This document shows, one piece after another, positions 20,280-32,071 of a DNA stretch of 64,000 nucleotides. Origin of the DNA: a virus; IMG/VR virus record IMGVR_UViG_3300046501_000132, positions 32,001 through 96,000 of that record. One strand, 5' to 3'. Numbering within the stretch: position 1 is the stretch's first letter; the number at the start of each line of letters is the position of its first letter. The position numbers and the translations under genes were made by a program. The notes under the pieces were generated by a model. The model made no database searches and had not been told where the DNA came from. It saw only the letters and a list, made by a program, of their open reading frames with translations.

Positions 20280-20355
20280 TGGTGGCTCGTACCGGGATCG
20301 AACCGGTGACCAGCGGATTTAGAATCCACCGCTCTACCAACTGAGCTAACGAGCC
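20280..20355 (-). tRNA. Amber suppressor tRNA (anticodon CUA)
   Basis: Canonical 76-nt cloverleaf: GGCTCGT/ACGAGCC-A-CCA; GTGGA-TT-CTA-AA-TCCGC. Confidence 0.93.
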
Positions 20356-21482: not shown

Positions 21483-21500
21483 ACAGCACAAAACTACTTA

Positions 21501-21576
21501 GGGGTGACTAGTCGGACTTGAACCGACACTTACCTGACTCACAATCAGGTTCTCTACCGATTGAGATATAGCCACA
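21501..21576 (-). tRNA. tRNA-His(GUG), U at -1, 3' end encoded as CCT
   Basis: GTGGCTA/TAGTCAC, C73, loop TT-GTG-AG. Confidence 0.88.
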
Positions 21577-23421: not shown

Positions 23422-23432
23422 AATAAAACTAC

Positions 23433-23621
23433 TTAGTTGCCCTTCCGAGCAACTGGAGCCTTGTCATCCGGACCACGACGCTTCGCGGTGTACAGACGCT
23501 TGGAAGCATCCTTACCGTGAAGAGGCTTGGTCTTTGCCGGACCACTACCACCGCCCTTACGAACAGCGGAGATTTGCTTTGCTGCTGCATTCTTCTTTGC
23601 AGCCTTGCTTTGACGAGACAT
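23433..23621 (-). CDS. Small highly basic protein (possible nucleic-acid binder)
   Basis: AAGG RBS; Lys/Arg/Ala-rich 62 aa. Confidence 0.7.
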   Translation of the reverse strand: MSRQSKAAKKNAAAKQISAVRKGGGSGPAKTKPLHGKDASKRLYTAKRRGPDDKAPVARKGN

Positions 23622-23694
23622 CCTTTAAATCCTTTTCAATGATTTTAACCGTTAGGCTTGAGAAGGAATCTGTTCACAAATTCCTTCCTCAGCC

Positions 23695-24018
23695 GAATTC
23701 CCAGCACGCCAGCCCAGAGCACACATCGGGGTCAATTCAATGATCACCCACTACACTATTATCTGGGATTTGAAGAATCTCTAAGACTTGATGATTTGAG
23801 TTTTGAAAATCTTAAACTTTAAACATCTGATCTTTCAACCTTCAGCTTTAACCTTTGAGCTTTGATGTCTGTTGCGGGCATCCTAGCCCGCAATATTGTC
23901 TTTTCGATAAGAATTCGAAATACAATGCACCTTAGCATGGTTTTGGCTCTCGCAGTTTTTACGTCCTAGCGAGAAGTGGACGCCGAAAGTTTTGACGCGT
24001 TCGACGTACCAGGAATTC
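23695..24018 (-). ncRNA. ~325-nt structured RNA with heptamer repeat array
   Basis: 17-bp closing stem with G:U pairs (24002-24018/23695-23711), H-type pseudoknot, hairpins, no ORF. Confidence 0.7.
23781..23866 (-). repeat. Imperfect ~7-nt tandem array (about 11 units, consensus approx. YAAAGYT)
   Basis: CAAAGCT CAAAGGT TAAAGCT GAAGGTT GAAAGAT CAGATGTT TAAAGTT TAAGATTTT CAAAACT CAAATCAT CAAGTCT. Confidence 0.75.
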
Positions 24019-24036
24019 AGATTACTACAAAACTAC

Positions 24037-24672
24037 TTAGTCGGCAATTTCGATCTCAGTGCGAGCATTCGACTCCGACAGAACAAAATCAACTTCCGTC
24101 ACGAAGTCCGAGAACTTCGTTTGTAGTTCCTTGATCTTGTCTGCAATCTTAACCGGATCCAGCAACTTCGCTTCCGACTCACCCTTAACCGCCTGAGCGA
24201 TCAGGTTGTATTGATCTTCGTTGACCTTGCCCTTGTCATTACCATAGGCGGCCATCACACGCTTTTCGATGTCAGCTTCAACACGAGTGTTTTGCTGGTT
24301 CACCGCATTCGTCGCCTGGTTGTAATGAGCAACCAGAGTGTTGATGAAGTGCTGGGTATAACCAATCGAACCCTTACGCTCGATAGCCTCAGCAACAGTC
24401 ATTTCCGTACCGCTGATGTTCACCTTGGTGGAACCGTTCGATACGATGATGGCTCGCTTAATGGCATCACGCCGAGCAATGAGAGCCTCAACTTGTTGGA
24501 ACGACGCTGTGATTGCCGATTCGATCTGTTCCTTGGTCACCGCCGAGTTCAGCGGGACTTCCTTCTTGCCGCGTACTGCAGCGACATACGTACCACCCAC
24601 GATAGCGGAGTTGATACGTGAATCCAGGGTCTTCAGTTCGGCCAGGCCGCGCGTTACCGTAATCTTTGTCAT
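24037..24672 (-). CDS. Conserved coiled-coil protein (DIP1984/DUF6847-like from memory)
   Basis: GLAELKTLDSRI, MTVAEAIERK, LLDPVK, EVDFVLSESNARTEIEI. Confidence 0.7.
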   Translation of the reverse strand: MTKITVTRGLAELKTLDSRINSAIVGGTYVAAVRGKKEVPLNSAVTKEQIESAITASFQQVEALIARRDAIKRAIIVSNGSTKVNISGTEMTVAEAIERKGSIGYTQHFINTLVAHYNQATNAVNQQNTRVEADIEKRVMAAYGNDKGKVNEDQYNLIAQAVKGESEAKLLDPVKIADKIKELQTKFSDFVTEVDFVLSESNARTEIEIAD

Positions 24673-24711
24673 ACTTTCCTTTCTCTCTTTTCGTAAAATT
24701 ACTTAGTCTGA

Positions 24712-31963: not shown

Positions 31964-32071
31964 TTAGAAATTTCCATTCTATGTTAGGAAAGTCGTATTC
32001 TATCCTGTCTAATATGTAAAGTCTAATGATAGATATGAATAATGCCCCAGAGTTTCCCCTGAGGCTTGCTA

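Follow-up and report, generated by a model that had tools for sequence, protein, structure and literature searches.

A pseudoknotted non-coding RNA family located 3' of a helical-protein gene in phage and bacterial tRNA operons

The locus and its protein gene

The window analysed here is a 64,000-nt stretch of viral DNA (positions 32,001 to 96,000 of IMG/VR record IMGVR_UViG_3300046501_000132). On its minus strand, within the tRNA cluster of the phage, a small helical-protein gene adjoins a structured RNA of 328 nt (24020-23693), which extends from the 5' strand of its closing stem P1 through the 3' strand of the same stem. The features of the locus are as follows.

24037..24672, minus strand: gene of a 211-aa helical-bundle protein (phrog_1491, PHROG match E = 1.4e-62)
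24003..24020, minus strand: 5' strand of closing stem P1, paired with 23693-23710 (18 bp including 5 G-U)
23994..24002, minus strand: junction GAA and 5' strand of P2 (ACGCGUC), with its partner at 23721-23727
23947..23983, minus strand: H-type pseudoknot with stems S1 (GCGUCC/GGACGU) and S2 (UUCUCGC/GCGAGAG)
23872..23940, minus strand: variable region holding three local hairpins, one of them UUGCGGGC/GCCCGCAA
23768..23867, minus strand: 7-nt periodic A/U-rich tract of about 12-14 units, consensus N-U-N-A-A-A-G, which runs into AAAUCC
23710..23775, minus strand: conserved 3' domain comprising AAAUCC, P3, an inner hairpin, the P2 3' strand and GGCUG (73.3 bits with covariance model R1)
23721..23727, minus strand: 3' strand of P2 (GAUGUGU), within the P3 loop
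23693..23710, minus strand: 3' strand of P1, which begins flush after the conserved GGCUG
23662..23688, minus strand: hairpin GGAAGGAAU...AUUCCUUC just 3' of the element

The 211-aa protein was found to be distantly DIP1984/DUF6847-like, and the label attached to phrog_1491, 'tail fiber protein', is probably spurious. No family was found for it in Pfam or NCBIfam, a profile search of the PDB gave weak matches only and the Atlas search returned unnamed clusters together with a weak DUF6847 lead. Apart from small beta elements, its AF2 model (pLDDT 90) is all-helical and forms a bundle, for which the best PDB match is 3kdq (Z = 9.8), itself a protein of unknown function. Besides 3kdq, the matches in Foldseek PDB, VIA wide and BFVD were uncharacterised phage proteins, and the other helical-bundle rows lay within chance range. 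None of the Pfam, NCBIfam, PDB, Foldseek and VIA matches carries a known RNA-binding fold or domain, and the family is mildly acidic with a median pI of 5.8. The protein is predicted to form a closed symmetric homodimer (ipSAE 0.58 against 0.00 for the best control; partner pLDDT 87), with at least 98% of the contacts in common between prediction runs. Of 30 solved homodimers, 20 attained this ipSAE mark, as did 1 of 23 monomers. An invariant motif, EMTVAEAI, lies in the predicted dimer interface.

Fold of the RNA and its periodic tract

The element begins at 24020, which is 16 nt past the stop of the gene and not 18 nt as an earlier sequence-only reading had placed it. The same reading described the element as free of open reading frames and we agree, as the minus strand has no ORF of at least 40 aa inside it. 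Directly past its 3' end, identity among close relatives falls to about 0.45. ARAGORN and the Rfam tmRNA/tRNA models called no tRNA or tmRNA within 23693-24020, and a promoter/terminator scan of the locus gave nothing convincing for the RNA element. The hairpin GGAAGGAAU...AUUCCUUC has no U-run and was not called by the terminator scan; its role may be that of a signal for processing or pausing. The minimum free energy of the element has a z-score of -4.0 against shuffles (-3.8 for the opposite strand), and R1 finds a single copy in the whole 170.7-kb phage genome.

A closing stem of 17 bp with several G:U pairs had been proposed; the stem and its G:U pairs are indeed present, while its length is 18 bp with 5 G-U. 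Among the 34 distinct P1 stems of the family, canonical pairs make up 100% of the first 10 bp, and each of these positions shows 4-6 pair types. G-U pairs outnumber A-C combinations by 54 to 2 in P1 family-wide, which fixes the coding strand, and together with the heavy covariation of the stems this bears out the view of a real RNA read from that strand. We regard the reality of the RNA family as virtually certain.

The RNA also has P2, a second long-range pseudoknot helix which the sequence-only reading had missed. Its 5' strand follows the GAA junction, where residues 23994-24002 of the window are the clade equivalent of the family motif (C/U)GAAA(A/G)C, and because its 3' strand is located inside the P3 loop, P2 forms a long-range pseudoknot. 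When leader and 3'-domain strands were combined at fixed offsets, the P2 helices had a mean of 5.8 bp in cognate combinations and 4.7 bp (sd 0.19) in non-cognate ones. The duplex energy was -13.0 kcal/mol for cognate pairs against -9.7 kcal/mol, and 0 of 5000 permutations were as low.

The H-type pseudoknot predicted earlier was also observed, where S1 (23983-23978/23966-23961) crosses S2 (23975-23969/23953-23947). Other clades have the same topology with wholly different stem sequences, and in related loci the S2 hairpin matches the hairpin of the Rfam motif RAGATH-27. A per-sequence pseudoknot search against shuffles was underpowered (median z 1.1), so the pseudoknot rests on this recurrence with changed stems and on the RAGATH-27 hairpin. 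The predicted hairpin UUGCGGGC/GCCCGCAA is likewise found, at 23893-23872, though it belongs to the fast-evolving variable region. Identity in this region is 0.48-0.64 among close relatives, which is near the third-codon level of 0.56, and different hairpins or a nested tRNA occupy its position in other members. The proposed CCCAGA/UCUGGG domain corresponds to P3 (23767-23762/23718-23713), which was found family-wide, 94.6% paired and with compensatory changes in 5 of 6 pairs. We thus demonstrate an RNA fold made up of P1, P2, the pseudoknot and P3, with covariation in P1, P2 and P3.

Between the variable region and the 3' domain, a 7-nt periodicity extends over about 100 nt with a lag-7 autocorrelation of 0.52 (z = 5.7 against shuffles; family mean 0.48), which upholds the repeat array that had been counted as about 11 units. 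The description of this array as apparently unpaired found no clear support, the probability of being unpaired having been predicted as 0.44 for the tract and 0.38 elsewhere. Among close relatives the tract is 0.78-0.91 identical against 0.56 at synonymous sites. The AAAG anchors are 0.98 identical and the positions between them 0.75; with identities of 0.75-0.92 where synonymous sites have 0.56-0.81, the between-anchor positions are not hypervariable. Judged from these substitution patterns, the tract is under purifying selection. The period of 7 nt was observed to be constant while the units change by clade (UYAAAGN, AUUGAGU-type and GUAGUUA-type), as would be expected if a reader co-evolves with the RNA. 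A 14-nt super-period that would fit a dimer was considered and dropped, since equal autocorrelation at lags 7 and 14 follows from units of one motif. The heptads were also compared with the complements of particular anticodon loops and no frame was consistent across clades.

Distribution of the pair and relation to known systems

A structured repeat RNA was found downstream of the homologous genes in all eight named phages, in each of the 28 bacterial loci tested and in practically every one of the 61 viral contigs, and in every lineage examined the RNA is coupled genetically to the upstream protein gene, as the sequence-only reading had anticipated. R1 matches 54 loci at E <= 1, always on the strand of the gene, 230-460 nt beyond its stop and once per locus. 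The only other R1 match has E = 0.99, and the architecture can be seen by eye in the loci that R1 does not match. The eight named phages with the pair are those of Clostridioides, Lactococcus, Bacillus, Klebsiella, Vibrio, Erwinia and Ralstonia and the T5-like Bas26, in which the RNA corresponds to the gap at MZ501072 64171-64613. Protein identity across the named phages and bacterial loci drops to about 30%, and the RNA measures 272-488 nt in the viral copies measured. The protein family was found in 728 phage records, and the T5-like RNA copy, at least 90% identical in 440 records, is almost never annotated. A nucleotide search of the window region against phages returned short coding matches only.

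The module lies mostly inside tRNA arrays, on the tRNA strand, where a tRNA frequently begins 20-60 nt past P1. In some members, including cyanobacterial copies, a tRNA is nested inside the RNA. Among bacteria, the pair was found in Lysinibacillus and in filamentous cyanobacteria, in the latter within long tRNA arrays; such cyanobacterial arrays are induced by translational stress in Anabaena (PMC8421152). The window copy belongs to the extended family, having the order AAAUCC-P3-...-P3'-GGCUG followed by the P1 3' strand, a 7-nt tract abutting it and phrog_1491 directly upstream on the same strand. We assign the RNA to a widespread and mostly undescribed family of pseudoknotted non-coding RNAs, which are found in the tRNA operons of phages and bacteria, always directly 3' of one helical-protein gene.

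A comparison of the window with Rfam at gathering and permissive thresholds gave only tRNAs and chance snoRNA/miRNA rows, and the RAGATH-27 model did not match the window copy even at E <= 10. RAGATH-27 (RF03100) is an orphan candidate sRNA motif of 86 positions for which a protein partner is not recorded. It covers a piece of the 5' domain of one clade, with a consensus that takes in the 5' side of P1, then CGAAAAC and UUUAAAC, and lastly the hairpin of the pseudoknot, the loop of which pairs with upstream sequence. In 11 related loci the full length of the model (1-86) aligns to the 5' domain, in exactly the place that the 5' domain has in the window copy, with scores of 41.7-59 bits (E 2e-5 to 0.035) against a gathering score of 76.1 bits. 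The order of its consensus is found again in the window, where CGAAC..GUCAAAAC is followed by the S1/S2 pseudoknot, with the same topology and a diverged sequence. About three quarters of the RNA is absent from the model, namely the closing-stem partner, P2, the heptad tract and the 3' domain, which shows that RAGATH-27 is only part of an RNA of much greater size. In the literature that was searched, RAGATH-27 was unmentioned and neither the full RNA nor the protein was described.

There is a formal likeness to VIPR, in which the phage Vipr RAMP protein and the adjacent vrRNA form a ribonucleoprotein, the vrRNA having 9-16 short tandem units and a constant pseudoknotted part (bioRxiv 10.64898/2026.04.26.720920). 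Both systems have a phage protein gene adjoining a pseudoknotted RNA with short tandem units. However, the VIPR units are 5 nt long (YNNGG) with hypervariable NN whereas those described here are 7 nt and under purifying selection, and the RAMP/RRM fold of Vipr (RRM, G-loop and thumb) differs from a helical bundle. No RAMP protein was among the Foldseek or VIA matches listed for the 211-aa protein, an absence that is weak evidence. The operator of T4 gene 32 has a 5' pseudoknot followed by more than 40 unstructured nt with several UUAAA/UAAA, to which gp32 binds cooperatively (PMC535899). The likeness lies in a pseudoknot followed by A/U-rich repeats, which here are UUAAAG/UCAAAG. Each gp32 monomer covers about 7 nt. 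The T4 operator is, however, a much shorter 5' UTR which overlaps the ribosome-binding site, whereas the tract in the window is enclosed in a doubly pseudoknotted RNA downstream of a gene and terminates at a folded 3' domain that is not followed by a start codon.

Oligomeric proteins likewise meet a long series of short motifs, spaced evenly or repeatedly, on the trp leader bound by TRAP, on the hut RNA bound by HutP and on sponges of the CsrB/RsmZ type. Those systems use triplets or GGA loops with other spacings, and their protein folds are unrelated to the 211-aa protein. None among them is known to have the closing stem, the double pseudoknot or the tRNA-array context. A type III toxin-antitoxin system (ToxIN-like) was rejected because it needs tandem repeats of about 36 nt upstream of an endoribonuclease toxin gene, whereas the units here are 7 nt and downstream. 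The earlier suggestion of an antitoxin-like RNA likewise gained no support, as no toxin fold was recognised in the protein and no toxin family was found in Pfam, NCBIfam or PHROGs.

A possible ribonucleoprotein and its alternatives

Given the strict synteny, it is plausible that the RNA and the upstream protein form a ribonucleoprotein. The RNA would be made within one transcript with the gene and the tRNAs and cut back to the base of P1, after which it may act jointly with the protein, a predicted dimer. The folded 5'/3' core would serve as a specific handle, while the conserved AAAG-type heptads, 12-15 in number, would form a lattice along which the binding site recurs, with the particle working in tRNA or translation biology during infection. 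Synteny, phylogenetic breadth, covariation, the kept period, selection on the tract, the predicted homodimer and the VIPR precedent all count in favour of this lattice. Counting against it are the median pI, the lack of a recognisable RNA-binding domain, the position of EMTVAEAI inside the predicted dimer interface and an unpaired probability in the tract that is barely above the rest. Moreover, the closed C2 dimer as modelled does not by itself account for a directional lattice of 12-15 sites, and the synteny could stem from co-transcription instead of binding. We therefore hold the lattice mechanism tentatively, as a reading that falls somewhat short of probable.

The acidity of the neighbouring protein makes it a poor candidate for RNA binding, and the pseudoknot and UUAAA/UAAA repeats of the T4 gene 32 operator (PMC535899) suggest another arrangement, in which the RNA stands alone and serves as sponge or operator to some other single-strand binder (a gp32-type phage SSB, for instance, or a protein of the host). 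The pseudoknot would then nucleate cooperative binding along the UUAAA-rich tract and the gene would merely be co-transcribed. We consider this rather unlikely because variable hairpins and even a tRNA intervene between pseudoknot and tract, the tract ends in a folded domain and not in a ribosome-binding site, and the clades differ in unit sequence while synteny with one gene is near-absolute across phyla. The location of most loci in tRNA arrays on the tRNA strand, including arrays of the stress-induced cyanobacterial type (PMC8421152), and the nesting of a tRNA in some members are instead what a module of tRNA biology would show. On this view, enzymes that act on tRNA (the anticodon nucleases of host defence, for instance, or those of processing and modification) would find in the RNA a decoy or a scaffold, and its 7-nt units would imitate or engage the 7-nt loops of tRNA; by our own reading, N-U-N-A-A-R-N fits the U33/purine-37 pattern of an anticodon loop. 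However, the units have no flanking stems and so are not stem-loop mimics, those of other clades are off the loop pattern, no enzyme partner was identified and the array location may only reflect shared mobility, which leaves this proposal unlikely.

The remaining explanations concern the level at which the element acts. A cis-acting 3' UTR or operon element, which stabilises or processes the polycistronic gene/tRNA transcript and has no function in trans, would agree with the missing promoter and terminator calls, with the tRNA that often starts within 20-60 nt of P1 and with the constant strand. Nevertheless, a double-pseudoknotted core of ~330 nt with a selected periodic tract far exceeds what stability elements need, and the near-identity of the T5-like copy over its 440 records also speaks against it; we judge such a role improbable. 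A guide of the VIPR kind, where the fixed part of each unit holds the protein and the variable positions jointly read a gapped nucleic-acid target, draws on the formal likeness to vrRNA and on the lower identity between anchors (0.75 against 0.98). This is highly improbable, since conservation between the anchors exceeds that of synonymous sites, the fold of the protein is a helical bundle and not RAMP/RRM, and the period is 7 nt instead of 5. An origin or iteron array acting as DNA could be imagined from the A/T-rich short direct repeats flanked by an inverted repeat and from the z-score of the opposite strand, but the excess of G-U over A-C in P1, the covariation of the pseudoknotted helices and the fixed orientation to the gene inside co-directional tRNA clusters make it barely credible.

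Extended further, the ribonucleoprotein lattice would represent a new particle that travels with tRNA arrays in phages and bacteria, where the dimeric helical protein polymerises on, or reads, a 7-nt RNA register and thereby, in infection or under translational stress, controls or protects the machinery of translation; tRNAs, or defence nucleases directed at tRNA, might for example be captured. We consider this doubtful at present; if true, it would be a mechanism with no described precedent.

Among the features of large lytic phages that lack annotation, the gene-RNA pair is one of the most widespread, and with its recognition a propagated 'tail fiber protein' annotation is corrected. The module is directly testable in E. 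coli with the T5-like phages of the Basel collection. That an RNA with two pseudoknots and a conserved register of 7 nt has stayed beside one protein across phyla implies a function, and this function is probably tied to the reason why phages and some bacteria carry tRNA arrays.

Occurrence of the gene and its RNA

Our comparison shows an elaborate, conserved RNA tied to one gene. A protein search of viral contigs recovered 61 loci (31-73% protein identity), and in nearly all of them 300-700 nt without sizeable ORFs were found 3' of the gene. In the window, this ORF-free stretch on the minus strand is about 415 nt and lies between the gene and the next minus-strand ORF start at 23621.

Features of the gene-RNA module in the window
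24037-24672, minus strand: gene of the 211-aa protein (by translation)
23693-24020, minus strand: structured RNA element of 328 nt
23768-23867, minus strand: tract of 7-nt units within the element

Side-by-side reading of the viral loci revealed a common plan with, in order, a stem, (C/U)GAAA(A/G)C, a pseudoknot, variable hairpins, a run of 7-nt units, AAAUCC, a helix, GGCUG and the second strand of the stem. R1, a covariance model built on the 66-nt 3' domain, finds this domain in 54 loci, always on the gene's strand and 230-460 nt beyond the stop, and the sole other match in the viral-locus search has E = 0.99. In the remaining viral loci the domain is visible by eye, falls in a clade just under the cut-off, or is truncated. 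R1 matches once in the whole phage genome (a complete record of 170,684 bp, with the window covering bases 32001-96000). It also matches in six more named phages, each time within the unannotated interval behind the gene (Clostridioides phage LIBA2945, Lactococcus phage AM12, Bacillus phage PK16, Klebsiella phage KPP-1, Vibrio phage Athena and Erwinia phage Ea35-70), and the same plan can be read in two others, the T5-like Bas26 and Ralstonia phage RsoM2USA. The sequence-only reading had made its proposal depend on homologous genes carrying a downstream structured repeat RNA, and the shared plan and the R1 matches show such an RNA there.

With one genome scanned per species, the protein was found in 107 prokaryotic species, mostly filamentous cyanobacteria, Lysinibacillus (many species of which carry the module) and Paenibacillus, and many of the copies are on chromosomal contigs. 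The R1 domain follows the gene in all 28 bacterial loci tested. This is a family and not a chance fold. In addition, the 349-kb viral contig IMGVR_UViG_3300024999_000029 has two diverged copies of the module (L005 and L007), located near 86 kb and 243 kb. The module may have been truly duplicated there, or the assembly may be chimeric or concatenated.

Fold of the RNA and its heptad tract

The closing stem P1 is formed between residues 24003-24020 and 23693-23710, where a base-by-base count gave 18 bp including five G-U pairs, in agreement with the long G-U-containing stem proposed from the sequence alone. These G-U pairs point to the RNA strand because the same pairs would be A-C mismatches on the opposite strand. 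Across the family, two motifs bound P1 exactly: its 5' partner stops where (C/U)GAAA begins, and its 3' partner starts where GGCUG ends. The first ten pairs were observed to be 100% canonical in 34 distinct stems, with four to six pair types per position, and 396 of 408 cells are paired, whereas shuffling the partners leaves 234 (sd 11). G-U occurs 54 times and A-C twice in these stems, a count somewhat biased by the partner search, which permitted G-U and not A-C; despite this bias, the opposite strand could not give ten uninterrupted pairs.

The previously described pseudoknot, GC hairpin and CCCAGA/UCUGGG helix (P3) were all found in the window sequence. Pairing in P3 reaches 94.6%, and five of its six pairs show compensatory changes. 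Its covariation score, from an alignment fitted to the model, is 0.555; shuffles give 0.16, and sliding the partner gives no more than 0.16. The 5' H-type pseudoknot recurs in different clades with wholly different stem sequences, and a per-sequence shuffle test, which is a weak test, gave a median z of 1.1. A further helix, P2, is newly recognised here; in it the leader just after GAA pairs with a segment that lies 2-5 nt upstream of the P3 3' strand. As this segment sits inside the P3 loop, P2 is a second pseudoknot. Cognate partners form 5.8 bp compared with 4.7 bp (sd 0.19) for non-cognate ones at constant offsets. Their duplex energies are also better, with none of 5000 permutations as low, to which shared GC content could contribute. 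The structure of the RNA is well supported.

P2 strands (leader / partner)
Window: ACGCGUC / GAUGUGU
L009: AACCAUGA / UUAUGGUU
L028: ACCUUGA / UCAAGGU
L029: AAACUGA / UCAGUUU

The 7-nt repeat array was confirmed by autocorrelation, with a lag-7 peak of 0.52 against 0.15-0.33 at lags 1-5 (z = 5.7 versus shuffles) that is confined to about 23867-23768. The tract may be unpaired, as was assumed from the sequence alone, but thermodynamic folding did not single it out (unpaired probability 0.44 in the tract against 0.38 elsewhere). Almost every locus of the family shows the periodicity (mean 0.48 at lag 7 and 0.45 at lag 14, against 0.23-0.35 at other lags) in tracts of 80-105 nt, or 12-15 units, which abut AAAUCC; the length was taken where a simple scan met no phase shift. 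The unit sequence varies by clade (UYAAAGN, AUUGAGU-type and GUAGUUA-type) with a constant period of 7, which fits a partner inherited together with the RNA. Among close relatives, identity is 0.91 in the 5' core and 0.78-0.91 in the tract and 3' domain, compared with 0.56 at third codon positions of the gene. The hairpin region between core and tract (0.48-0.64) and the sequence beyond P1 (0.42-0.53) do not rise above this third-codon level. Within the tract, the AAAG anchors are 0.98 identical and the intervening positions 0.75.

tRNA surroundings and catalogued RNAs

The gene and RNA are located inside a region of 25 tRNA genes on the minus strand (window about 18-27 kb). Same-strand tRNA genes flank the module in most viral loci, and in about 15 of these a tRNA begins within tens of bases of the P1 end. 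In filamentous cyanobacteria (L072-L128) long chromosomal tRNA arrays enclose the module; as an example, Calothrix sp. PCC 7716 (L073, AP025018.1 2887141-2891773) has 16 tRNAs just upstream. ARAGORN found no tRNA within 2 kb of the module in the two Lysinibacillus loci checked (L134 and L144). A study of long tRNA arrays, in which the Anabaena array was induced by translational stress, noted embedded protein genes and mentions no RNA of this kind (PMC8421152). Some cyanobacterial and phage copies carry a tRNA or tRNA-like sequence nested between the leader or pseudoknot and the tract, and in cyanobacterial L074 it appears to replace the pseudoknot domain. This raises the possibility that such RNAs are cleaved by RNase P and RNase Z, with the two pieces still joined by P1 and P2.

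Nested tRNA or tRNA-like sequences
L029: 3713-3787
L031 and L032: inside the element
L074: 2729-2802
L075: 2707-2783
L080: 2729-2803
L097: 2691-2761

Several neighbouring features were noticed in the window. The 62-aa ORF has no family match and is not conserved across the gene-RNA family. The 12-mer overlaps the TAA stop at each of four gene ends within the tRNA region, one copy with a mismatch; it has five matches in the window against 0.33 expected and could be an intergenic or processing signal specific to this phage. The anticodons UUA (L002) and CUA (L042) occur among the tRNAs of related loci, and stop-codon suppression or recoding may occur in phages with such tRNAs.

Neighbouring features in the window
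23433-23621, minus strand: very basic 62-aa ORF (MSRQSKAAKK...) 3' of the RNA, with a homologue after the RNA in L002
24712-25272, minus strand: upstream gene, whose 186-aa product carries a lipoprotein-type signal and matches glycine zippers weakly
21490-21501, 23425-23436, 24029-24040 and 24695-24706, minus strand: 12-mer CTAAGTAGTTTT
20280-20355, minus strand: one of the 25 tRNAs, CUA anticodon reading the amber stop codon (ARAGORN label 'Pyl')

The window element has no match in Rfam 15. RAGATH-27 (RF03100) matches the 5' domain of 11 related loci across its full 86 positions at 41.7-59 bits, under the 76.1-bit threshold, and its Rfam consensus includes the 5' strand of P1, which it shows as unpaired, together with CGAAAAC, UUUAAAC and the pseudoknot hairpin. 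The full-length match and shared elements indicate that RAGATH-27 is a fragment of one clade of this gene-linked heptad RNA family. No mention of RAGATH-27 was found in the literature searched. The corresponding tRNA regions of related phages contain further catalogued orphan RNAs and a group I intron; structured RNAs appear to be concentrated in phage tRNA clusters.

Catalogued RNAs in tRNA regions of related phages
L045, 5286-5412 and 4309-4358: RAGATH-33 and DUF3800-XI
L037, 2115-2224: drum RNA
L019, 4607-4674: int-alpA
L051, 1491-1761: group I intron

The 211-aa protein and possible roles of the RNA

The protein is a member of phrog_1491, labelled 'tail fiber protein' in PHROG. Genes of this group are found among early or tRNA-region genes in annotated phages and are mostly recorded as hypothetical; we infer that the label is a propagated error. 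No family in Pfam or NCBIfam matches, and the one relative with a solved structure is the functionally uncharacterised Corynebacterium protein 3kdq (profile E = 0.0013, VIA Z = 9.8). The AF2 model (pLDDT 90) has long helices and a small sheet made from the termini and one hairpin, which carries the invariant EMTVAEAI motif. With a median pI of 5.8, the family is mildly acidic. Oligomer modelling, as had been suggested earlier, predicted a symmetric homodimer whose interface takes in this motif. The two-copy fold exceeds the acceptance mark (ipSAE 0.58 against 0.00 for the best control), with at least 98% of contacts alike between runs and a pLDDT of 87. Among solved structures, 20 of 30 homodimers and 1 of 23 monomers reach this mark; the calibration is only rough here because our own alignment was supplied.

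The most economical reading, which we put forward tentatively, is a ribonucleoprotein where the folded 5'/3' core of the RNA would act as the specific handle and the heptads would provide repeated sites for the predicted dimeric protein. Such protein-on-repeat-RNA logic exists in phages: the T4 gene 32 operator combines a pseudoknot with UUAAA repeats that are bound cooperatively (PMC535899), and VIPR pairs a phage protein with an RNA of 9-16 short tandem units (bioRxiv 10.64898/2026.04.26.720920). However, the window element has the defining features of neither. The variable positions of its tract lack the hypervariability seen in VIPR, and this speaks against a programmable guide. The repeated sites might instead make the RNA a sponge for another factor, which we consider unlikely, and slightly less probable still is that the RNA acts directly with tRNA-directed enzymes. 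A cis element is the most doubtful of these roles. The ribonucleoprotein reading stays the tentative first choice for an RNA that is real and widespread, has its own dedicated neighbour gene and is largely undescribed.
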